Shown here piece after piece: positions 5,580-56,701 of a stretch of DNA of 64,000 bases (positions within the stretch are counted from its first letter, which is position 1; the number at the start of each line of letters is the position of its first letter). The stretch comes from a virus (lineage: Duplodnaviria; Caudoviricetes), in the IMG/VR virus record IMGVR_UViG_2703719088_000001, positions 1 through 64,000 of that record. One strand, written 5' to 3'. A model generated the notes under the pieces. That model saw only the letters and a list, made by a program, of their open reading frames with translations, was not told the DNA's origin and made no database searches. The position numbers and the translations under genes were made by a program.

Positions 5580-8500
5580 TTACATTATAACGTTCCACTT
5601 TATTGAGTTGTTTACTCTCTTCCAGTTTGTTGCCACAGACCACGTGTTGGCGGTGTACTCATCCATGCTGTACTGGTACGTGAGTGTCTGCCCTGCCTCG
5701 TATGGCTGTGTGTTGTTTATCGTCATCGAGGATGGCCCCGTGCGGACAATTGACACAGGCGCATCGACATTCTCTATTGTCACGGTGAACGAAGCACCAG
5801 AGACATAGCTGCACAGCATGCGCCATTCTGAGTGCTCACCGATGCTCTGTAGGTTCATTGCGTCGGCAAGGCGTGTGGCGATGCTCGACAGCGACTCGCC
5901 CGCACTTGCCAGCACGAAGAAATTGTCCTGAAACCCGTCAGGGGCGTACACATCGACACCTATCTCGCCCTCTTCCACCGTTAGGTCGTTCGACGTGACG
6001 GTGATGACGAAGGCCGTTGTCTGCGTGGGTCGGTAGTTGACCATGAAGGCTGGCATACGCATATATGTAGGCACATCATCTATGGCCTCTGCCAGCGTCC
6101 TCTTCTCGCTGAGCCATGTGCCGACACCCTCTGCTGCGTCAAGGGCTTTCTCCGCTTTCTCCAGTGCTTCATCGGCGGTGTCCGAGGAAACGACATGCAG
6201 CACGCCGCCATCCTTGCTCAGTGTCTCGTCAACGGGTATTGCGTCAATGATTTCCTCAGAGGTGTCCTCTGTTACGGAATAGGCTGTTATGCCTCCTGCA
6301 CTGGTGACTCTCGAAGCTTTCATCGGCAGAGCGTAGCTTCCCTCTTTCGGGTGGTAGAGGTCACCCACATCATGACCGCCGATTTCAAGTGTTGCGACGG
6401 ACACATCCTTCAAAACGGCATCGCCGTCAGACTCTATCTTCTTCCCACCACTGCCAAGCAGTATATTGCCTGTCATCGTGCCTCCAGCTTTCTGTAGGTA
6501 TACATCCTCTATACCATCAATATAGTCGATGTCAATGCTGTGCTGGCCGTCGTAAGTGGACAGTATCTCCCACATGGCATCCTCGTCAAAGTCACTACCT
6601 GAAGAAGGTGTTGCCTTCAGCACCCCGTTATCCCATACGATGGTATCGTTGTCGATAGGTATGGCATCAACCCAACTATCAGGTTGCACATTTGATGCGT
6701 ATGCTGTAATACCACCTGTCACGACAAGGTTGGCCAATCCGTCAGAAAGGCTCTCCAATACCCAGGCATGGAGATAGTCATCATACCGCTTCTTTAAATC
6801 CCCAAGGATGAAGTCACCAGTGATGTCCTTATCCCCGGAGAACTGCTGACCCCAGATTTTCCTTCCAACCCTCGACATCCCGGACAACTTGGCCGTCACC
6901 TTATTTACATTGGCCGTGACCTTTTGAAGCGTCGTCTGCTGTATGTCGTCACTGAGCGTTATATCAACCTTGGGGGTGATATTGTCACCCATGTCTATCG
7001 TGACCTGTTTGATCGTGACACACATGTCGCCACCTTGATCGACAGAAGAATTGGGTATATCTTTGAACTTTAGCAGCATCCCAGCATACAACCTCCAGAA
7101 GATACTCTTCTCCGGAGTGCTGGCAGCGGCCATGCGGTCTATGTTACGCTGAAGGTATATATCGTCTATCTTGGGCTGATAGGTAAACCTCGTCTCGCAG
7201 TTTAGAGCAAGATAATCTGATGCAGCGAGCAGTAGGCGCACCTCTGCAGCAGAAACGTAAGCATCCGGCATCTCGATATTCAATAGCACGAACTTGTCTC
7301 CAGCAGACAAAAAATTCGGTCGGCTGGGGTAGTAGGTGTTAAGGCTGCTGTCCGTCGCACGCTTTAGCGTCAGTTGGTAGCCTTTCCTGCCGTTGTATGT
7401 CACCTTCTTGATGTCAGAACCTATCTCGAATTCGCGACCGACACACATGCCTTCCTTCATCGAGACAACAGGAGTTTCGCTGCCGAATACAGCAGACGGG
7501 TCGAACCCCATATCCTTGATGATAATATGGAATGTGCCATTCGTTGCCGTGCTACGCGATAAATCAATCCAAGTGTACTGTGGAACAATCAAGACATCGC
7601 TTGACCATATGTTGTACAATAGACTCAATGTGCTGCCAGTGTTGTCCTGCATCGTAGGAGCAATGGTGACGGTTACATCCGAATCCTCATCGACATTAAT
7701 GGCAGGAATTTGCGCATTCTGCAGGTTCTTGACATCCGGCAACTCAGGTAACTCTATGGACTTTGCCGCCTCACCTGTAGATGTCTGAATAAAATCGGAA
7801 AAGTAGGTTAGCGTCCTAACAGAGTTATCTGATAGTTTCTTAATCTTTATATTGATACGAAAGCCAACCTTGGCGGACGCATATGTCCTTTCAAGCCAGA
7901 AATTGTACAATGCCGACATAGCAGATGTCGGAGCGATGGCATAGCTGCCGCTCTTGACCCCTTCAATGGTGAAAAGTTTTATCTCCCTGCCGACAAGATG
8001 ATCATCTTCTGTAGTGAAGTCGCCGAGATGCGATACCACCGTTCCGACGGAGATATTGTATGGACTGCCCATGGCAAAGTTACCACTCTCTGGCATGATA
8101 CCATCACCCTCGTTTGCGTCGTTGACAAGAACGCCGTTTCTGAGGTAGCCTACGGCAAGTATCTCGTTTATACGCTCGTCATCCTCGTATTCAAGGAAAG
8201 AGTGTTTGCCGTGGCTATCAGTATGTTCTTGGCTCTCTTCTGTGTATCCATCTTGGTCTTCGACACCGGCGGCGCGAAGTTCTTCGTACTTGACATCCTC
8301 GATGGTAGGATAAATTTCCGGCTTGTCGCTATCTGTGCCATCCCAACAACCGACATCTTCTCTGACACCCTCGTCACATGTGGCTGCGTTATCGCCTTTG
8401 TCAATATATGCGTCATTGACCGTGCCAAGGACATGGCGGACTTTCGGCAGACCCGTCTCCTCGTCGTAACCATACTGGGCATCTCGTCTTGCGTTGGCGG

Positions 8501-9461
8501 CATTCTTGTCTGCCTGCGACGCGAAGGTGTCCGGCAACTGCAGGGTGGTGGGGAAGAACGATGACGGGAGATTGTATTTCTTGTTGTAATATCTATACGG
8601 CAGGTTCTTCGTCGATCCGACAACACGCAGGCGGGTGACGATAAGCTGCTTGCTGTCAGCGACCTTGGTGATTTCAAACAGACCTTTCCCTTGGTTCTCA
8701 GGGGAAGGGTATCCGGAGCCATAGCCGAAAGCGAACATCTCTTCCTCATCATCTGAAGTGACGTCTTCCAACGTGTACCCGATATACACCTTACGACCCT
8801 TGATGCAGTAGTTCAAGTTGAAATCATTCTTTACCCTTGCTATGGCTTGTGCTACGGTCTCCTTGTTGAAAGACAGCATCTTGTCATCTGTATGTGTGAC
8901 AAGCCTTGTCTCGCCGGTACTGCTTATGTACTCCGTTGTGGTGTCTACAAGGATTTCCCATACCCCCTGACCATATGCGCGGTCGAGGTTGGCCTGTATC
9001 TTTGCCGCAAGAGTACATACGGGTGTAAGAGTAACAGTCTCTCCTTCAACTTCAATGGTTGTCTCGCCACAGTAGAGGTCGAACTTGCTGCTTCCCGTAT
9101 AATCCGTTCCAAAGTGTGGGTCGTAGTCACCTGCAGGTGTGATGTCAAGCATCGTGCATCGTGTAGTCTCATCCTGGTAGGAATCGAAGCGGATATTCTC
9201 ATAGGTATATGCATCCTGAATGCTGCCTGTCGCAGCCCTCTGCTTAACGGACGGCTTGTAGTTGAGAGTGAACACCTCGCCCCTGAACACGCAATAGTCG
9301 CCAACGGAGAAGTTTATCGGTGTCTCAGACTTAATAGTGAGGGTAATGTATTGTTCCCCCATCATCGTATCCTGAAACTTCCACTTCTCCGACTTGGCTC
9401 GCACCTGGCTGTCAGATACAAGGCTACCTTTCGGCTTTATTATGATTTCTATCCTTTCCAT
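5580..9461 (-). CDS. Tail tip / baseplate hub protein with fibre-like C-terminal extension (1293 aa)
   Basis: N-terminal MGEQYITLTIKSETPINFSVGDYCVFRGE region resembles Bacteroidota siphophage tail-tip proteins; synteny after TMP and the Dit-like gene. Confidence 0.75.
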   Translation of the reverse strand: MERIEIIIKPKGSLVSDSQVRAKSEKWKFQDTMMGEQYITLTIKSETPINFSVGDYCVFRGEVFTLNYKPSVKQRAATGSIQDAYTYENIRFDSYQDETTRCTMLDITPAGDYDPHFGTDYTGSSKFDLYCGETTIEVEGETVTLTPVCTLAAKIQANLDRAYGQGVWEILVDTTTEYISSTGETRLVTHTDDKMLSFNKETVAQAIARVKNDFNLNYCIKGRKVYIGYTLEDVTSDDEEEMFAFGYGSGYPSPENQGKGLFEITKVADSKQLIVTRLRVVGSTKNLPYRYYNKKYNLPSSFFPTTLQLPDTFASQADKNAANARRDAQYGYDEETGLPKVRHVLGTVNDAYIDKGDNAATCDEGVREDVGCWDGTDSDKPEIYPTIEDVKYEELRAAGVEDQDGYTEESQEHTDSHGKHSFLEYEDDERINEILAVGYLRNGVLVNDANEGDGIMPESGNFAMGSPYNISVGTVVSHLGDFTTEDDHLVGREIKLFTIEGVKSGSYAIAPTSAMSALYNFWLERTYASAKVGFRINIKIKKLSDNSVRTLTYFSDFIQTSTGEAAKSIELPELPDVKNLQNAQIPAINVDEDSDVTVTIAPTMQDNTGSTLSLLYNIWSSDVLIVPQYTWIDLSRSTATNGTFHIIIKDMGFDPSAVFGSETPVVSMKEGMCVGREFEIGSDIKKVTYNGRKGYQLTLKRATDSSLNTYYPSRPNFLSAGDKFVLLNIEMPDAYVSAAEVRLLLAASDYLALNCETRFTYQPKIDDIYLQRNIDRMAAASTPEKSIFWRLYAGMLLKFKDIPNSSVDQGGDMCVTIKQVTIDMGDNITPKVDITLSDDIQQTTLQKVTANVNKVTAKLSGMSRVGRKIWGQQFSGDKDITGDFILGDLKKRYDDYLHAWVLESLSDGLANLVVTGGITAYASNVQPDSWVDAIPIDNDTIVWDNGVLKATPSSGSDFDEDAMWEILSTYDGQHSIDIDYIDGIEDVYLQKAGGTMTGNILLGSGGKKIESDGDAVLKDVSVATLEIGGHDVGDLYHPKEGSYALPMKASRVTSAGGITAYSVTEDTSEEIIDAIPVDETLSKDGGVLHVVSSDTADEALEKAEKALDAAEGVGTWLSEKRTLAEAIDDVPTYMRMPAFMVNYRPTQTTAFVITVTSNDLTVEEGEIGVDVYAPDGFQDNFFVLASAGESLSSIATRLADAMNLQSIGEHSEWRMLCSYVSGASFTVTIENVDAPVSIVRTGPSSMTINNTQPYEAGQTLTYQYSMDEYTANTWSVATNWKRVNNSIKWNVIM

Positions 9462-10142: not shown

Positions 10143-10640
10143 ATGAACCCTCTGAACAGAGAACTGAAAGAACAGGCCGTCAATCTCGGATTGTGTGACG
10201 ACTGGACTGAGATGTGGAACAAGGACTGGGACAACGACAAGCTTGCCGAGCGTATGTACAAAGGTCTCGACTTCTGTCTTAAGCACCATTGGCCGTCCAA
10301 TAAGTTCATCAAAGAACACTTCGACAAAGATTTCCTGCATAGGGTAGGGATTATCGTTGATGAAAAGCACAGCCTGATGAATATACAGAAGGCTCTCATC
10401 TTAGGTTCGTCAGAGGTGACGATGCGTGTAAACGCATGGAATCACAGCGACATCTACGTCAGGGATGAATCAAAGGTTTTCCTTACAGCAAAGAACGGAA
10501 GCTTTGTTATCGTCCATCTGTTCGACAATGCAAGTGTCAATGTTTCATGCATTGACAAGGCGCACGTGACGTTAATCAAACACTCAGATGAGGTGTCATG
10601 CTCATATAGTGGAGAAGTAAAGGTAAAAAGCGCAACATAG
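10143..10640 (+). CDS. Hypothetical protein with C-terminal beta-repeat region, opposite in orientation to the tail operon
   Basis: ORF track 10044..10640. MNPLNRELK start at 10143 follows a -7 box, and a terminator lies downstream. Confidence 0.7.
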   Translation: MNPLNRELKEQAVNLGLCDDWTEMWNKDWDNDKLAERMYKGLDFCLKHHWPSNKFIKEHFDKDFLHRVGIIVDEKHSLMNIQKALILGSSEVTMRVNAWNHSDIYVRDESKVFLTAKNGSFVIVHLFDNASVNVSCIDKAHVTLIKHSDEVSCSYSGEVKVKSAT

Positions 10641-10683
10641 AAACGATGTGTGTTTTAGTTTTTCATGGTATTATGTATTAGGT

Positions 10684-10718
10684 GAGGGCTATCCGGGAGG
10701 ATCGCCCTCATCGTTTTT
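10684..10718 (+). terminator. Intrinsic terminator, possibly bidirectional
   Basis: GAGGGCTATCC-GGGA-GGATCGCCCTC stem followed by ATCGTTTTT. Confidence 0.65.
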
Positions 10719-10723
10719 ATGAT

Positions 10724-12002
10724 TTGCGAGCGGGAAAACCCACTAATTCAATAGTGGGATGAAAGCGAGTTAAACAAGATTTGGATTTCTCAAAAAGTTT
10801 TCATATACTTGCATTGGAAAATCAGTACTAATGCTGAGATCTATCAAATATGAACTAAATCCTACCAAGACCCAGAAGGAGCAGATAAAGCGGACTTGTG
10901 GGTGTTGCAGGCTGGTGTATAACACTATGCTTTGACAGGAAGATTAGTGCATATAAGAAAGATAAGACATCGCTTTCAGCCGTTGAGTTGATCAACCAAC
11001 TTCCGCAACTGAAATCCGAACTCAACTTTTTGAAGGATGCGCCAAGCCAATCCCTGCAACAGGCAATCAGGAATCTTGATAGTGCCTATACCAATTTCTT
11101 CCGCAAGGGTGGCAGTGGATTTCCTAAGTTCAAAAAGAAAGGAGTGAGGGATAGTTTCAGAATACCTATTGCTTGTGTCTTTGATTATGACAATTGGACG
11201 GTAAAGGTGGCAAAGTTGGGAACTATTAGGATTTTCAAGGGGCATAATAAGCCCATAAGTGGAAAAATCAAGTCCTACACCATAAGCCATACTTCTACTG
11301 ATAGGTATTTCATATCGGTTCTGTATGAGACTGCGGGTACGGCAAAATTGGATAATGGAAAGTCTATCGGTATTGACATCGGCATAAAGTACTTTGCAAT
11401 ATTGAGTGACGGAAAGGTGTTTGAAAACCAAAAATACCTCAAGCGCAATCTCGGGAAACTGAGGGTATTACAAAGAACTGTCAGCAGAAGATACCAACGA
11501 GGCAAGAAAAGAGAAGAGCAGTCAAACAATTGGAAGAAAGCTGTAAAGCAGGTTGCAAAACTACAAGAGCATATTGCCTTCCAAAGATATGATTACTTGC
11601 ACAAAGTCAGTACATGGATAGCAGACAACTATTCCACAGTCTGCGTTGAGACTTTGAATGTAAAAGGTATGCAAAAAAACCATCACCTTGCACAATCAAT
11701 TTCTGACTGTGGATGGAGTATGTTTATCAGTATGCTCGAATACAAGTGCGATAACCTTGTTAAGATAGACAAGTGGTTTGCGAGTAGCCAAACCTGTTTT
11801 GAGTGCGGGCATAAGGAAGAGAAAGTCAAAAACCTTGCTGTAAGGGAATGGACTTGCCCTGCCTGCGGAGCACAACACAACAGGGATTTGAATGCTGCGA
11901 GAAATATAGAGAGGGAGGGACTATCCCTTTGTGGACTTAAGGTAGCAGATTGCTGCAAGCCTGTCCCAAGAACCCCACAGTTTTAACTGTGGGAGTAGTC
12001 AG
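10724..12002 (+). mobile_element. tnpB-only IS200/IS605-family element (IS1341-like), about 1.28 kb
   Basis: Left-end hairpin CCCACTA-ATTCAA-TAGTGGG at about 10738-10757 after the putative target motif ATGAT. Right-end hairpin CCCACAGT-TTTA-ACTGTGGG followed by AGTAGTCAG. tnpB inside; no tnpA. Confidence 0.85.
10831..11986 (+). pseudogene. tnpB: TnpB RNA-guided endonuclease with a +1 frameshift near the N-terminus
   Basis: RuvC-I IGIDIGIK, RuvC-II VCVETLNVKGM, zinc finger CFECG...CPACG and RuvC-III RDLNAARNI are present. The N-terminal MLRSIKYELNPTKTQ...CRLVYNTML (10831) is in a different frame from DRKISAYK because of one extra T at 10931-10933. Confidence 0.85.
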
Positions 12003-51133: not shown

Positions 51134-51802
51134 ATGTCAAAAAGAACATTATTCGTTCTGGCCAACTCGGTTTGGCGTGCGGACGATTTCCTGCACAGCG
51201 GGAACACCAATCCTCTTCGCACAGACCACTATCTCTTCGCTACCCGCGAGGAGGCGGAAAAGAAGGCGCAGCAGATGGAAGTGGATGATGACATCTACAA
51301 CGATGGTACTATCTTTGAAGGCGAGATCGAGGAAAGCGAAATCCTCGAACTGACAGGTTATGAGAAGATTGAGGATTTTGACGAGGCTATGGCCGAACCT
51401 TACTCCACTAAGCCGTATTATAAATGCTATGGAGAGGAAGAAAAGGGAAGTGTAGCCGATGCAATCATCGAAAATCATATTCATGAATATGATGCCAACT
51501 GCCCGAATTATGACTTCAACAAGTCTCTGGACGGAGCAGTCCTTATCTTCTGGTCATGGGAACGCTATGTTGGATATGCCCGTAAATGCATTGAGATACG
51601 TTATGCATACAGCAACGAAAAGGAAGATATCCTCACAAAGAGGGATCAGACGTTTGTCGCCCAATGTGATGTGCTGCTGACATCTGAAGAGGTTGCAGCC
51701 TCTGATAATATCAAGGAATCCATCCGCGAGGCTCTTGACAGCCGTGCTCATTGGAAATGGACAAATCCTAATTTTGTCGAATTCTTAATTGACAAGTTCT
51801 GA
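51134..51802 (+). CDS. Acidic hypothetical protein
   Basis: 222-aa ORF after an AT-rich promoter-like region. Confidence 0.7.
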   Translation: MSKRTLFVLANSVWRADDFLHSGNTNPLRTDHYLFATREEAEKKAQQMEVDDDIYNDGTIFEGEIEESEILELTGYEKIEDFDEAMAEPYSTKPYYKCYGEEEKGSVADAIIENHIHEYDANCPNYDFNKSLDGAVLIFWSWERYVGYARKCIEIRYAYSNEKEDILTKRDQTFVAQCDVLLTSEEVAASDNIKESIREALDSRAHWKWTNPNFVEFLIDKF

Positions 51803-52032
51803 TGAGTAGATTCATCCTGCAACCCAGTAAAAAGCCTGGCTGGTGGGTGTGCACCGACACAGTGAACAATATCGTCTGCCGTTTTGAAGAACACAACTTC
51901 AACGGCACGAAGGATATTACGCTGCTCAACGGCGATACTTTCAAGACGACGGAAGAAGCCTTGAGATACCCGACATACCTGCGCGAGATGGCTGACTGGC
52001 TCATAGAAAACCACTGCAAAAAAATTATCTGA
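51802..52032 (+). CDS. Hypothetical protein
   Basis: 76 aa, translationally coupled (TGATG). Confidence 0.7.
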   Translation: MSRFILQPSKKPGWWVCTDTVNNIVCRFEEHNFNGTKDITLLNGDTFKTTEEALRYPTYLREMADWLIENHCKKII

Positions 52033-52244
52033 TGTACACTATTATCAAAGACGTAAAACGTGAGTGTTGGAAAAGAAACCTAACACTCACCGATGTCGCA
52101 AACAAAATGGGCATGATCAGGAACAACTTCTACCTGTGTATCAAGAATCCAAGTATCAGGTTGTCAACCGTTCATGCTATTGCCGATGCTATCGGCTGCA
52201 ATATTGCAGACCTTTTTCAATCATACTACGATGACGAAGAGTGA
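52032..52244 (+). CDS. XRE-family HTH regulator
   Basis: LTLTDVANKMGM...NPSIRLSTVHAIADAIGCNIADLF is a classic XRE pattern. Confidence 0.85.
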   Translation: MYTIIKDVKRECWKRNLTLTDVANKMGMIRNNFYLCIKNPSIRLSTVHAIADAIGCNIADLFQSYYDDEE

Positions 52245-52805: not shown

Positions 52806-53069
52806 ATGAAGACTTATCCACTACTCGCGTATGAAGAGAACACCTTGTTCGTATGGGGTTCTTTCAATGAAAAGACATTCAAAGGAATGCCTGATGTCAC
52901 AGAAGACATGACTATTGTCGTCCAGAATGCCTCGAATCCGTTTGTCATCATCTATAACACGTCCGGCCTTACAAAGCAGGAAAAAGATGATGTTGTCAAG
53001 CAACACTGCAGCATGATGGCCAACGGATGCAATTTCCGTCCGGAGCGACAACTCCGGCTTTTTTATTAG
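52806..53069 (+). CDS. Hypothetical protein
   Basis: Hairpin-GGTACGAT-GTCTAACCC leader plus 87-aa ORF. Confidence 0.65.
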   Translation: MKTYPLLAYEENTLFVWGSFNEKTFKGMPDVTEDMTIVVQNASNPFVIIYNTSGLTKQEKDDVVKQHCSMMANGCNFRPERQLRLFY

Positions 53070-53177: not shown

Positions 53178-53211
53178 TTTGGAGTAAATATAGCAAATAC
53201 ATTATATTTAC
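53178..53211 (+). promoter_or_regulatory. Promoter (TTTG-N21-TATATTTA) overlapped by a 9-bp inverted-repeat operator
   Basis: GTAAATATA (53184-53192), a 10-nt spacer, then TATATTTAC (53203-53211): a perfect inverted repeat. Confidence 0.65.
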
Positions 53212-53271
53212 ATTGTAAACAAAAACAACAACCAAGACACCGGCGGCAACGGGTAACAGCGGCAGAAGATT

Positions 53272-53805
53272 ATGACAACAAAGGACACCACCATCAAGTA
53301 CACCTCCAAGTCAGGTAAAGATGTTATTGTGACAGTACATCGCAAGTATGGTGCATACATTGAGCATCATCACGACTCAGAAAACGGCATCGACTACGAC
53401 ACCAACGAGTTTGCCAATGACCAGAGCATAACGGTTGAGGTTCCCGGCGTTTGCAGATTTGAGACCAAGTACCTGCCGGATATGAAGCACCCCAAAATCA
53501 ACATGTACTATCTGAACAATGGCAGTGTATGTGTAGCCGTGCCTGACGAGATAGCCGAGCAGATCTTTGAGGCTGAGCGCGAGAGATTGACCGAGGAACT
53601 GTCACCTTCCGTCGTTGCAAGCATCCAGGAAGCAAAGACCGCCATCCGCAATGGTCGTGTAATGCCAAAGGCTGAGCTGAGTAATAAGCGCAAGGAATAC
53701 AACGACATTTGCAATGAAGGCGCAGAGGGCTACAACCCCTTCGATGGCTACCTGACAACTGAGTATGTTGAGCGTTTGAAAGCGGAATATCCCGAAAAAT
53801 TTTAA
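53272..53805 (+). CDS. Hypothetical protein, anti-CRISPR or anti-defence candidate
   Basis: First gene of a two-gene operon whose second gene carries an HTH. The candidacy rests on guilt by association. Confidence 0.6.
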   Translation: MTTKDTTIKYTSKSGKDVIVTVHRKYGAYIEHHHDSENGIDYDTNEFANDQSITVEVPGVCRFETKYLPDMKHPKINMYYLNNGSVCVAVPDEIAEQIFEAERERLTEELSPSVVASIQEAKTAIRNGRVMPKAELSNKRKEYNDICNEGAEGYNPFDGYLTTEYVERLKAEYPEKF

Positions 53806-53817
53806 AAACTATAAACT

Positions 53818-54303
53818 ATGCCACTTGACAGAAATTGCAACGCGATACCATATATCGCAGGGCGGATGATCGCCATCACCGAGCACTATGCCCAAAAAAA
53901 ATTCGGCCCGAACACCCTCTCGACAATGTTCCAGCACCCGGCCGGCACAATAGGTGTGTTCCGCCGCTACATAGATAAGGATGACGAGTATTACCGGGAG
54001 GTGGGAGAGGTCGAATTGCCTATCACGACAGCAAACGAGGTGGCCAAAAGCCAGATGTGGGTAGGCTACTATCATCAGACGGCCGCTTATGACGAGAGCA
54101 GTGACGCTCGTTTGCGTATCGGCAAGCGGATAGCCGACCTACGCAAGTCGGCCGGAATGACACAGGAGCAGCTTGCGACCAAGGCGGGCATCCATCAGGT
54201 CAACCTATCACGCATAGAGGCCGGGAGGTACGCTGTAGGGCTGGATATCCTTGACCACATCGCCCAGGCTTTGGGCGGAAGAGTTGATATCATCACCGAT
54301 TAG
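53818..54303 (+). CDS. Cas11c-like (Cas8c/Csd1 C-terminal) domain fused to an XRE HTH
   Basis: MPLD...PYIAGRMIAITE and LPIT...MWVGYYHQ align with the type I-C Cas11 motifs MSLD...PYLLGRLFAVLE and FP..M...F.IGYYHQ. C-terminal IADLRKSAGMTQEQLATKAGIHQVNLSRIEAGR is an XRE HTH. Confidence 0.8.
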   Translation: MPLDRNCNAIPYIAGRMIAITEHYAQKKFGPNTLSTMFQHPAGTIGVFRRYIDKDDEYYREVGEVELPITTANEVAKSQMWVGYYHQTAAYDESSDARLRIGKRIADLRKSAGMTQEQLATKAGIHQVNLSRIEAGRYAVGLDILDHIAQALGGRVDIITD

Positions 54304-54420
54304 GTGTTGCTTTTATCAAGTAAAGTACGAAGTTGTCAAAAATGTAGGCAACGTGTACTTTCTCAATTGACCGACTGGGTGGAGATTGGCCTCTCCATCC
54401 ACTCCTTATCTCTAAATAAT

Positions 54421-55794
54421 ATGCCTATGGAAGATAACAAGAAAAGAATCAAAGAGATACTTTCTTCCTTCAATGTAAGGATAGAGAGTATCGAAGAGAA
54501 GGTGGGGCATTCGATTACATTGTACGAAGTCAAACCTTCACTGGGTGTGCGCATCTCCAAGATACGCAACCTGAAAGACGAGATAGCCATCGGTTTATCC
54601 GTCCCTGCTGTAAGAATTGTTGCTCCTCTGCCCAGCGGTCTCGTTGGTATTGAAGTGCCAAACAAGACCAGGCAGGTGATACCTATTTCGGATATCATCG
54701 AGTCTGAGGAATACATCGACTCGAAGGCAGAGTTGCCATGTGCTATCGGCAGGACAATCGCCAACGAGGTCTTTGTGCCGGATTTGGCCGACATGCCGCA
54801 TATGCTAATCGCCGGTGCCACAGGCCAAGGTAAATCAGTGTGCCTGAACACTATCCTTCTGTCTTTACTCGAAAGCAATTCACCAGAAGAGATGAAACTT
54901 GTCTTGGTCGATCCAAAGCAGGTTGAGATGTCTGCCTACGCATCGCTTCGTGACACGTATCTCGCTGCACCCGTTCTCACCGAAGCAGACAAGGCATATG
55001 CTATCCTATGTGATGTGGTGACGGAGATGGAGAGAAGGTATTCTATTTTGAACGAAAACGGGGTAAGGAATCTTGGTGAGTACAACATCCGCTATCCTGA
55101 CAGCCAGATGCCGTACATTGTTGTTGTCATAGATGAGTATGGAGACCTTGTCATGTCTGCCGGAAGAGAGTTCGAGAAGATTATCTGCCGCATAGCACAG
55201 AAAGCGAGAGCTGTCGGCATACATATGATTATCTCAACGCAGCGTCCGTCTGCGACAATCGTTACAGGTGACATCAAGGCCAACTTCCCGACACGTATGG
55301 CTTTCCGTACTGTCACAGGTGTTGACTCAAGGGTTATCCTTGACCAGACTGGCGCAGAAAAGCTGACAGGTAAGGGCGACTTCATCTACTACAGCGGTGC
55401 TGAACTGCTTAGAGGCCAGTGTGCCTTGACAACGATAGATGACATCAAAGACCTTGTTGCCCATATACATGAGCAGTATGCCGATTATGTGAATACCCCT
55501 ACATTGCAATGGGAGATAAGGGAAGAGTATCGAAGAACGCATCCGTCGTTGTTGCTGCAGATTGCTCAATACATTGCTGACTTTGATTATATCACGATGG
55601 ATATGATCGAAAAGAAGTTTGGGTTACGTAGTTCGTTTTCCTTGGAAAATACCTTGGAATTATCACGTGTCATCGCGTGTAAACGATATGACTACGATAA
55701 TTGGAAGACCGAAGATGGACATGTTGTCCTTGTTCACGACAAGAGCCTACTCCCTGAAATGGTAGCCCCATATGAGAATTTTTTGGTTGGGTGA
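54421..55794 (+). CDS. ftsK: FtsK/SpoIIIE DNA translocase (soluble motor plus diverged gamma-like tail)
   Basis: PHMLIAGATGQGKSVC Walker A, LVLVDPKQVE, YIVVVIDEY Walker B, IAQKARAVGIHMIISTQRPS and GAEKLTGKGD; no N-terminal transmembrane segment. Confidence 0.9.
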   Translation: MPMEDNKKRIKEILSSFNVRIESIEEKVGHSITLYEVKPSLGVRISKIRNLKDEIAIGLSVPAVRIVAPLPSGLVGIEVPNKTRQVIPISDIIESEEYIDSKAELPCAIGRTIANEVFVPDLADMPHMLIAGATGQGKSVCLNTILLSLLESNSPEEMKLVLVDPKQVEMSAYASLRDTYLAAPVLTEADKAYAILCDVVTEMERRYSILNENGVRNLGEYNIRYPDSQMPYIVVVIDEYGDLVMSAGREFEKIICRIAQKARAVGIHMIISTQRPSATIVTGDIKANFPTRMAFRTVTGVDSRVILDQTGAEKLTGKGDFIYYSGAELLRGQCALTTIDDIKDLVAHIHEQYADYVNTPTLQWEIREEYRRTHPSLLLQIAQYIADFDYITMDMIEKKFGLRSSFSLENTLELSRVIACKRYDYDNWKTEDGHVVLVHDKSLLPEMVAPYENFLVG

Positions 55795-55852
55795 TACCAT
55801 GCCGGGCAGAATCAGCCTTCTGCCCGGCAACCACTTATCTAATTTTAAAGCT

Positions 55853-56701
55853 ATGATTGGTTCTTTTGAAAAAGAGTTTGCCATGAAAAATCCTGGCAGA
55901 ACTCAGATTTTGCGCTTCATGCGTGAAGCACTGGACGTTGATGAGGTGAAGTGGGAGAGTCTTACCCATCTGAACCTCGTGTCTGTCGCCGAGCATATAC
56001 GTTCATGTGTTTCTCCGAACAGCGCGGTGACGTACCTGGCTATTGTGAAGGCTTTCCTTGCACAATACAAGGACGAAGGTGTCGTGCCATGCTCAAATCC
56101 AGCGAAGGCACTAAAGGCAAAGAAAGTGCCGCAGCAGAATGTGGCACTCACCCTTGACGAACTCAACAAGATTGAGAGGTACTACGACAGGCTTCTTGCA
56201 AAAGGAGGCCATCAAGCCGAGAAGGATGCTTTGACGCTCTTCCTGCTTGAATGCTTCTGTGGTGCACGTGGATGTGATGTTGAGAACATGACATTGGAAA
56301 ACATAAAGGATGGCAAGCTGACATATGTCTCTCAGAAAACACAGATATTGGCCACCATCCCCGTTCACAGACGGCTGGAAGACCTGCTATCCAGAAAACC
56401 GAAGAAGCAGTACACAGCATGTACGAAGAATAGGATTATCAAGCGTGTCGCTGAGAGATGTGGCATCTCCGATCCTGTGACCATATTCTATCACGGTAGC
56501 ATGCAGACAAAGCCAAAATACGAGTATCTTGGCACGCATACAGCCAGACGGACGTTCTCTTCCATCCTCGCCGCCAATGGCACACCAATCCCTGAGATAT
56601 CGCAGTTCATGGGGCATTCGGAAATCTCAATGACAGAGAGATATATTAAAGTGGACATGAACACCGTCTCACAGGCTGCGATGGCATTCTTCAATGCTTG
56701 A
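55853..56701 (+). CDS. Tyrosine recombinase / integrase
   Basis: Catalytic set CGARGCD (R), HTARRTF (HxxR) and MGHS...TERY (H, Y). ATG 55853 follows a hairpin at 55801-55828. Confidence 0.9.
   Translation: MIGSFEKEFAMKNPGRTQILRFMREALDVDEVKWESLTHLNLVSVAEHIRSCVSPNSAVTYLAIVKAFLAQYKDEGVVPCSNPAKALKAKKVPQQNVALTLDELNKIERYYDRLLAKGGHQAEKDALTLFLLECFCGARGCDVENMTLENIKDGKLTYVSQKTQILATIPVHRRLEDLLSRKPKKQYTACTKNRIIKRVAERCGISDPVTIFYHGSMQTKPKYEYLGTHTARRTFSSILAANGTPIPEISQFMGHSEISMTERYIKVDMNTVSQAAMAFFNA

Follow-up and report, generated by a model that had tools for sequence, protein, structure and literature searches.

A two-gene cassette with a Cas11c-like/HTH fusion

The window under study comprises 64,000 nt of an 85-kb IMG/VR provirus record in which terminase, portal, major head and primase genes are present. 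On its plus strand, positions 53818-54303 encode a 161-aa protein that joins a Cas11c-like domain to an XRE-type HTH. Profile and fold matches placed the Cas11c-like domain at residues 1-95 (53818-54102), and Pfam together with structural comparison assigned 54103-54303 to a linker, the HTH and the stop codon. The open reading frame and its complete XRE HTH, both described in the first-pass annotation of this DNA, were present as claimed: residues 105-157 matched Pfam HTH_3 with an E-value of 9e-13, and the HTH superimposed on C.AhdI (1y7y_B) with a Z-score of 13.3 and an rmsd of 0.8 Å over 63 aa. The AF2 model of the protein had a pLDDT of 88.7; at linker residues 91-100 the value was 65, and the linker looks flexible in the model. 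In the database, this protein is called as P0001, a product of 145 aa starting at Met17 (53866). Since all homologues open with M-A-L-D-R and retain residues 1-16, we placed the true start at 53818. The start at Met17 removes the first of two sequence blocks shared with Cas11c, and automated annotation would consequently miss the N-terminal motif.

The gene is the last in a short cassette that appears to form its own transcription unit, as a terminator-like hairpin followed by a T-run (53040-53066, plus strand; a stem of 6 pairs, 5 of them G-C) closes the preceding gene at 52806-53069. Downstream of this hairpin lies a candidate operator (53184-53218) containing a perfect inverted repeat, GTAAATATA-N10-TATATTTAC, whose 9-nt arms span 53184-53211. 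A second short palindrome, TTTACA-T-TGTAAA, overlaps this repeat, and the candidate operator itself overlaps with a -7-like box of the Bacteroidota type, TATATTTA. In related loci, the corresponding place in the promoter is taken by a longer palindrome adjoining a TAnCTTTGCA box, which is the -7 promoter motif of Bacteroidota. The HTH of the fusion protein probably binds the candidate operator.

Between the candidate operator and the first gene is a conserved, GC-rich 24-nt leader, CCGGCGGCAACGGGTAACAGCGGC (53240-53263, plus strand), which ends 8 nt before the ATG. It occurs once in the window and in none of 100 shuffled versions. The exact 24-mer, CCGGCGGCAACGGGKAACAGCGGC, was also found in 19 further IMG/VR contigs. 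In 17 of these, a gap of 7-9 nt separates it from the first plausible ORF with an ATG start, at the head of an operon of small genes; the other two contigs end too early. Upstream of the leader, most of these contigs contain an A-rich stretch, the TAnCTTTGCA box and a long palindrome, the exceptions being two contigs lacking both box and palindrome and several with other inverted repeats. The first genes behind the 24-mer are mutually unrelated and encode proteins of 55-224 aa. An Rfam search with the leader and operon region returned no match. In Bacteroidota phages, the leader may act in translation or regulation, and it serves as a useful flag for accessory-gene cassettes.

The first gene of the cassette (53272-53805, plus strand; 177 aa) occupies what appears to be a variable cargo position. 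Its product had no family match, and a protein-atlas look-up gave only leads below 0.9. The fusion gene starts 12 nt past its stop codon. The two genes form a tight operon whose second product consists of an N-terminal domain and a C-terminal HTH or, in relatives, a ribbon-helix-helix-like domain. This arrangement resembles a reversed MqsRA/HigBA-type module, with the 177-aa protein as toxin and the fusion as antitoxin; NCBIfam searches indeed gave weak matches of the 161-aa protein to antitoxin HTH families. These matches, however, cover the generic HTH region alone. Moreover, when related loci were compared, the genes immediately ahead of the Cas11c-like gene fell into at least five unrelated families, and in some loci the Cas11c-like gene stands alone or behind different genes. 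Because the partner gene is not conserved, we rejected a toxin-antitoxin module as very unlikely.

Close relatives of the HTH (E-values from 1e-23 to 1e-38) were detected in many operons with the same leader, where they occur alone (69-94 aa), fused to a Cas11c-like domain, or fused to other, unrelated small domains. Given that the HTH appears alone or on unrelated N-terminal domains behind the same promoter and leader, the HTH regulator and the Cas11c-like part are separable modules, as they are in the Acr-Aca fusions already described. A comparable arrangement lies nearby in the window, where a 76-aa ORF (51802-52032) directly precedes a 70-aa HTH_26 gene, forming a mini-cassette at 51802-52244. 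The product of this ORF is 50% identical to that of the gene upstream of a Cas11c-like gene with a ribbon-helix-helix-like tail in another locus (L022). A 208-aa HTH fusion in L005 contains an internal domain homologous to it (E 4e-8), such fusions occurring in L005-L007. Free in the window and HTH-fused elsewhere, the domain of this 76-aa product provides a second example of a small domain found in both states. Immediately downstream of the cassette, 54304-56701 encodes an FtsK/SpoIIIE-like translocase and a tyrosine recombinase. The translocase is listed as an ORF at 54304-55794, although translation may in fact begin at an ATG near 54421, and the recombinase gene lies in the middle of the provirus record and not at an end.

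Residues 1-95 are a homologue of type I-C Cas11c

The first-pass annotation had proposed that the N-terminal part of the fusion is a Cas11c-like domain, and our comparisons bore this out: the segment from residue 1 to 95 is truly homologous to type I-C Cas11c, that is, to the Cas8c C-terminal domain. Cas11c is the type I-C small subunit and arises by internal translation of cas8c (bioRxiv 10.1101/2020.04.18.045682, McBride et al.; PMC7684278, O'Brien et al.). When the 161-aa protein was searched alone, the relationship remained below threshold. Residues 1-26 aligned to positions 444-469 of 559 in PF09709 (E 0.15; 11.1 bits against a curated Pfam cut-off of 27 bits), residues 62-91 aligned to positions 546-580 of 588 in TIGR01863 (E 0.05), and the two weak matches were co-linear. 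PF09709 was matched by 19 of the 21 homologues of the protein, the best of them at an E-value of 3.7e-7.

We then built a profile, termed A3, from the N-terminal domain alone, using 10 sequences from family loci. Searched against the PDB, A3 retrieved 10 sequences at E≤10, each of them a type I-C Cas11c or Cas8c chain. In the best match (7kha_K, E 4.3e-5), the alignment begins at Cas11c residue 2, indicating that Met1 of the phage protein corresponds to the internal-start methionine of Cas11c. Met1 also pairs with the internal M-A-L-D-K at residue 59 of P0085, a metagenomic Cas8c fragment that hhalign aligned to the phage domain with a probability of 96%.

Structural comparison led to the same assignment. 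Residues 1-95 of the AF2 model superimposed on the Cas8c C-terminal domain (8dfs_I, residues 490-608) with a Z-score of 11.6 and an rmsd of 2.5 Å over 93 aa, and on Cas11c (8dex_J, residues 1-119) with a Z-score of 11.3; overall, the Cas11c and Cas8c fold matches of the protein ranged from Z 11.3 to 11.6, with rmsd values of 2.4-2.5 Å over 90-93 aa. Furthermore, a structure search with a second family member, performed without Foldseek against 48,161 representative chains, yielded only three matches at Z≥8, all of them I-C Cas8c (Z 8.3-8.6, rmsd 3.3-3.5 Å, 94 aa), the next-best chain scoring 4.1. Other Cas11 types, namely CasB and I-A Cas11, scored approximately 4 against this member. The profile and structure comparisons that the first-pass annotation had put forward as checks of its assignment thus both agreed with it, through the PF09709 matches of the homologues, the restriction of A3 matches to I-C Cas11c and Cas8c, and the superposition on the Cas8c C-terminal domain.

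The resemblance to Cas11c (7kha, 8dex, 8g9s) extends from an N-terminal M-x-LD...Y..GR..A..E block and a GYYHQ close to the end to a shared helical-bundle fold and the alignment of the phage start codon with the internal start. In contrast to Cas11c, which is made inside cas8c within a cas operon, the phage copy is encoded alone on a phage, is approximately 25 aa shorter, lacks an aromatic-Lys-Lys motif and is joined to a DNA-binding domain. The first-pass annotation had described both Cas8c C-terminal signature blocks as present in correct spacing. Their presence and order were confirmed, whereas the spacing differs from that of Cas11c because of the shorter phage domain. In the A3 alignment, phage positions 26-62 correspond to Cas11c positions 26-87, which locates the shortening in the middle of the domain.

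The second difference lies at the C-terminal end of the domain. P0085, a real Bacteroidales Cas11c, reads GYYHQ-x4-Y-KK, and this motif corresponds to the F117/K118 contacts of Dvu Cas11c, which, together with F605/K607/K608 of Cas8c, touch the non-target strand (bioRxiv 10.1101/2022.06.15.496202). At the equivalent place, the 161-aa protein reads GYYHQ-TAA-Y-DESS and lacks the aromatic-Lys-Lys motif, the register beyond the HMM alignment having been set by eye. In the core phage family, too, the residues after GYYHQ-xxx-Y are acidic or polar. Both core blocks of Cas11c are nearly invariant across the phage family. Net charge of the N-terminal domain was discarded as a discriminator: the phage domains are mostly acidic, with a pI of approximately 5.5, yet the real Cas11c fragment has a pI of 5.9. 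A word search found no long protein that shares words with the phage N-terminal domain. Judging from these sequences, the phage Cas11c-like family appears to be old and diverged.

The retained fold and core motifs would also suit a functional, phage-supplied Cas11c that complements or redirects host Cascade, or a decoy for Cas3. The latter idea has a precedent in AcrIF3, which is said to mimic the Cascade surface and thereby trap Cas2/3. We nevertheless consider both roles highly improbable. A donated Cas11c is difficult to reconcile with the loss of the DNA-contacting Lys pair and with a window that contains no CRISPR array or repeat. A Cas3 decoy is unlikely because type I-C Cas3 is recruited through the wedge region of Cas8 and not through Cas11, whose subunits only twist in place (bioRxiv 10.1101/2023.08.05.552134).

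Orphan status, family forms and probable host

Consistent with the first-pass annotation, which had reported no other cas gene or array, we found no Cas7, Cas5d or Cas1 in the 85-kb virus record and no CRISPR-like repeats in the window; the sole PF09709 signal came from the gene of the 161-aa protein. When 1.84 billion cluster representatives were searched exhaustively with the family HMM, 45 clusters matched at E≤1e-3. All were 50-254 aa in length, and there was no full-length Cas8c among them.

Family members take several forms. The Cas11c-like domain occurs as a solo protein of approximately 100 aa (L027, L029 and L045), joined to an XRE HTH, joined to a short ribbon-helix-helix-like tail, or joined to other tails, and in some members an N-terminal extension of 80-110 aa precedes it, giving three-module proteins (L003, 5572-6369; L020, 308-1006). 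The ribbon-helix-helix label reflects a motif pattern and a predicted extended stretch followed by two helices, and should be taken as a probable assignment; in a PDB profile search with these members, no ribbon-helix-helix match was obtained by sequence. In one locus (L031), two Cas11c-like genes, encoding a 127-aa solo protein (7001-7384) and a 172-aa HTH fusion (10357-10875), flank SNF2-like, PAPS-reductase/DUF3440 and ParB_N genes.

All family contexts examined were those of a phage or mobile element, with no cas genes close by. The neighbours were terminase, lysin and portal genes in some loci, ParB, methylase and HNH genes elsewhere, the Bacteroidota conjugative-transposon genes TraM, DUF4138 and TraG in another locus, and Mob_Pre and integrase genes in further loci. 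For one cluster among the weakest matches (that of P0073), the traced member is P0085, which sits in a genuine I-C operon of Bacteroidales type (L034) composed of cas3, cas5c, a split cas8c, cas7c, cas4 and cas1. There, cas8c is divided between two ORFs of 410 aa and 192 aa (6749-8579), the second of which holds the Cas11c part; a frameshift or an error in assembly could account for the split. A Porphyromonas levii protein shares 72% identity with the Cas7c of this operon.

Searches for close relatives of the phage itself were unproductive. An 18-kb stretch had no megablast match among 50,697 phage records, tblastn of the 161-aa protein against phage records matched mainly the HTH part and in no case covered at least 80% of the query, and searches of genome contigs with the family profile and with the portal protein gave pattern matches but no confirmed relative. 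The closest HTH relative in the tblastn search was encoded by a Bacteroides fragilis phage. Together with the promoter motif, the L034 operon and the neighbours in related loci, which include conjugative-transposon, BACON and HU-HIG genes pointing to Bacteroidota, this relative leads us to infer a Bacteroidota host that carries type I-C. A host within the Bacteroidales would fit, since the nearest real Cas8c fragment, P0085, lies in an I-C operon with a Porphyromonas levii-like Cas7c.

A candidate Cas11c-mimic anti-CRISPR joined to its own repressor

We consider it about an even chance (roughly 0.5) that the fusion is a Cas11c-mimic anti-CRISPR joined to its own Aca-like repressor. The cassette is best read as acr-aca in type: its promoter and operator are conserved, its small cargo genes vary, and an HTH is retained at the end. 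Likewise, the HTH_3 match, the terminal position of the gene and the variability of the upstream gene across loci are Aca-like features. Because each module is also found without the other and the DNA-binding fold can be exchanged, the Cas11c-like domain is most simply explained as an effector fused to the autorepressor of its cassette. That this effector would replace Cas11c is suggested by its derivation from a multi-copy subunit, its divergence and mobile context, the preservation of the core blocks and the loss of the DNA-contact motif.

In the proposed mechanism, the XRE HTH would bind the palindrome at the cassette promoter and limit transcription. The N-terminal domain, keeping the helical-bundle fold of Cas11c and its two core sequence blocks, would compete with host Cas11c on the Cas7 backbone or beside the Cas8c C-terminal domain, as suggested by the combination of a retained fold and blocks with a domain that is approximately 25 aa shorter and devoid of aromatic-Lys-Lys. 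The target would presumably be a Bacteroidales I-C Cascade. In type I-C, the Cas11 subunits form a dedicated groove for the non-target strand (bioRxiv 10.1101/2023.08.05.552134; 10.1101/2022.06.15.496202), and a Cascade holding the phage domain might be unable to stabilise the R-loop.

Several observations count against a mimic. The 161-aa protein falls below the Pfam cut-off and no long protein shares words with its N-terminal domain; such divergence would be unexpected in a domain captured recently and adapted to the Cascade of one host, and the deletion of approximately 25 aa could equally well abolish contacts with Cascade. No known acr or anti-defence gene was found next to the fusion gene, whose neighbours lacked family matches, and the promoter-leader unit could simply serve these phages as an early or moron promoter of a general kind. 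That the fusion is instead an ordinary transcription factor of the phage, in which a Cas11c-derived bundle has been exapted for oligomerisation or partner binding and no longer has a link to CRISPR, is a possibility that we take seriously, although we think it rather less than probable. Such an origin would agree with the deep divergence from real Cas8c, with the combined 25-aa deletion and disappearance of the Lys-Lys DNA-contact motif, and with the position of the gene beside integrase and FtsK-like genes, where lysogeny regulators also sit; moreover, the presence of this HTH family on several unrelated small domains means that its partners may be generic. An oligomerisation role sits less comfortably with core blocks that have remained nearly invariant, with the occurrence of the domain by itself, free of a DNA-binding part, in those mobile-element contexts that were examined, and with related HTH proteins that work without a Cas11c-like domain. 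The N-terminal domain has, in addition, been kept while the DNA-binding domain was exchanged between HTH and ribbon-helix-helix-like folds.

The same exchange bears on a different idea, in which docking on host Cascade would switch the repressor off, allowing the cassette to be expressed where Cascade is present, or the fusion would tether Cascade to operator DNA. In favour of such a coupled regulator, a homologue of a Cascade subunit is covalently joined to DNA-binding domains of two different folds. The existence of solo and HTH-only forms, however, indicates that each module works alone, and the linker, predicted with low confidence (pLDDT 65, residues 91-100), looks flexible; we judge this reading unlikely. 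By extension, fusions of small subunits to DNA-binding domains might constitute a class of Cascade-coupled transcription factors in which the Cas11c-like domain signals to the phage repressor that host Cascade is present, or anchors Cascade at phage operator DNA, and which turn on anti-defence genes only in CRISPR-armed hosts, an idea that we regard as equally doubtful. If such a class were real, the swap between HTH and ribbon-helix-helix-like tails would reflect selection for the linkage itself.

As for the interpretation offered in the first-pass annotation, its anatomical basis has held up: a Cas11c-like domain and an XRE HTH form one orphan, phage-borne protein in an acr-aca-like setting. 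Its suggestion of an Acr and an Aca in one chain gains from the finding of the HTH alone or on other domains and of the Cas11c-like domain alone, whereas its variant of a fusion tethering Cascade to DNA found no specific support.

A Cas11c-mimic anti-CRISPR would have precedents. AcrIB3 and AcrIB4, from mobile elements of Listeria seeligeri, are homologues of Cas subunits that are reported to build a defective type I-B Cascade (bioRxiv 10.1101/2023.06.24.545427, Katz et al.). Like the phage Cas11c copy, they are mobile-element homologues of Cascade components; unlike it, they target type I-B in Firmicutes and have experimentally demonstrated activity. In the text of Katz et al. that we consulted, they are not described as small-subunit homologues. 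Table S3 of the same study lists 24 orphan viral cas8c genes in IMG/VR as candidate Acrs, mostly from Lachnospiraceae phages (bioRxiv 10.1101/2023.06.24.545427). These share with the present family the status of orphan cas8c-like genes on viral contigs. Three related IMG/VR contigs that we looked up in that table were not listed, and the main text of Katz et al. makes no mention of I-C, Cas8c or Cas11, nor is the Cas11c-HTH fusion described there; a BLAST-level survey such as theirs would likely miss the diverged phage family.

For the fusion itself, several Acrs are known to carry HTH domains, for example AcrIIC9 (Katz et al., bioRxiv 10.1101/2023.06.24.545427), and Acr-Aca fusions such as AcrIF24 (PMC9001735) similarly combine an inhibitor module and an HTH that represses the acr promoter in one chain. 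They differ in that their inhibitor modules are not Cas homologues, while for the phage Cas11c-HTH protein both activities are inferred. The first-pass annotation knew of no described Cas11c-HTH fusion, and we likewise found no description of one in the literature searched; its claim to novelty must nevertheless be softened, as orphan viral cas8c genes and Acr-HTH fusions were already known.

If the Cas11c-mimic reading is correct, no earlier inhibitor of type I-C, a widespread system, would have acted by subunit mimicry, and none of any type would have been built on the small subunit; the principle that viral cas genes become anti-CRISPRs would extend from type I-B in Listeria to phages of gut Bacteroidota. 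The family would then offer a compact, separable off-switch module of approximately 95 aa for I-C Cascade-Cas3 editors, and the promoter-leader-HTH cassette would mark dozens of uncharacterised small phage genes as anti-defence candidates. If, alternatively, the link to Cascade has been lost, the family would still show clearly that mobile elements have exapted a domain of a Cas protein.
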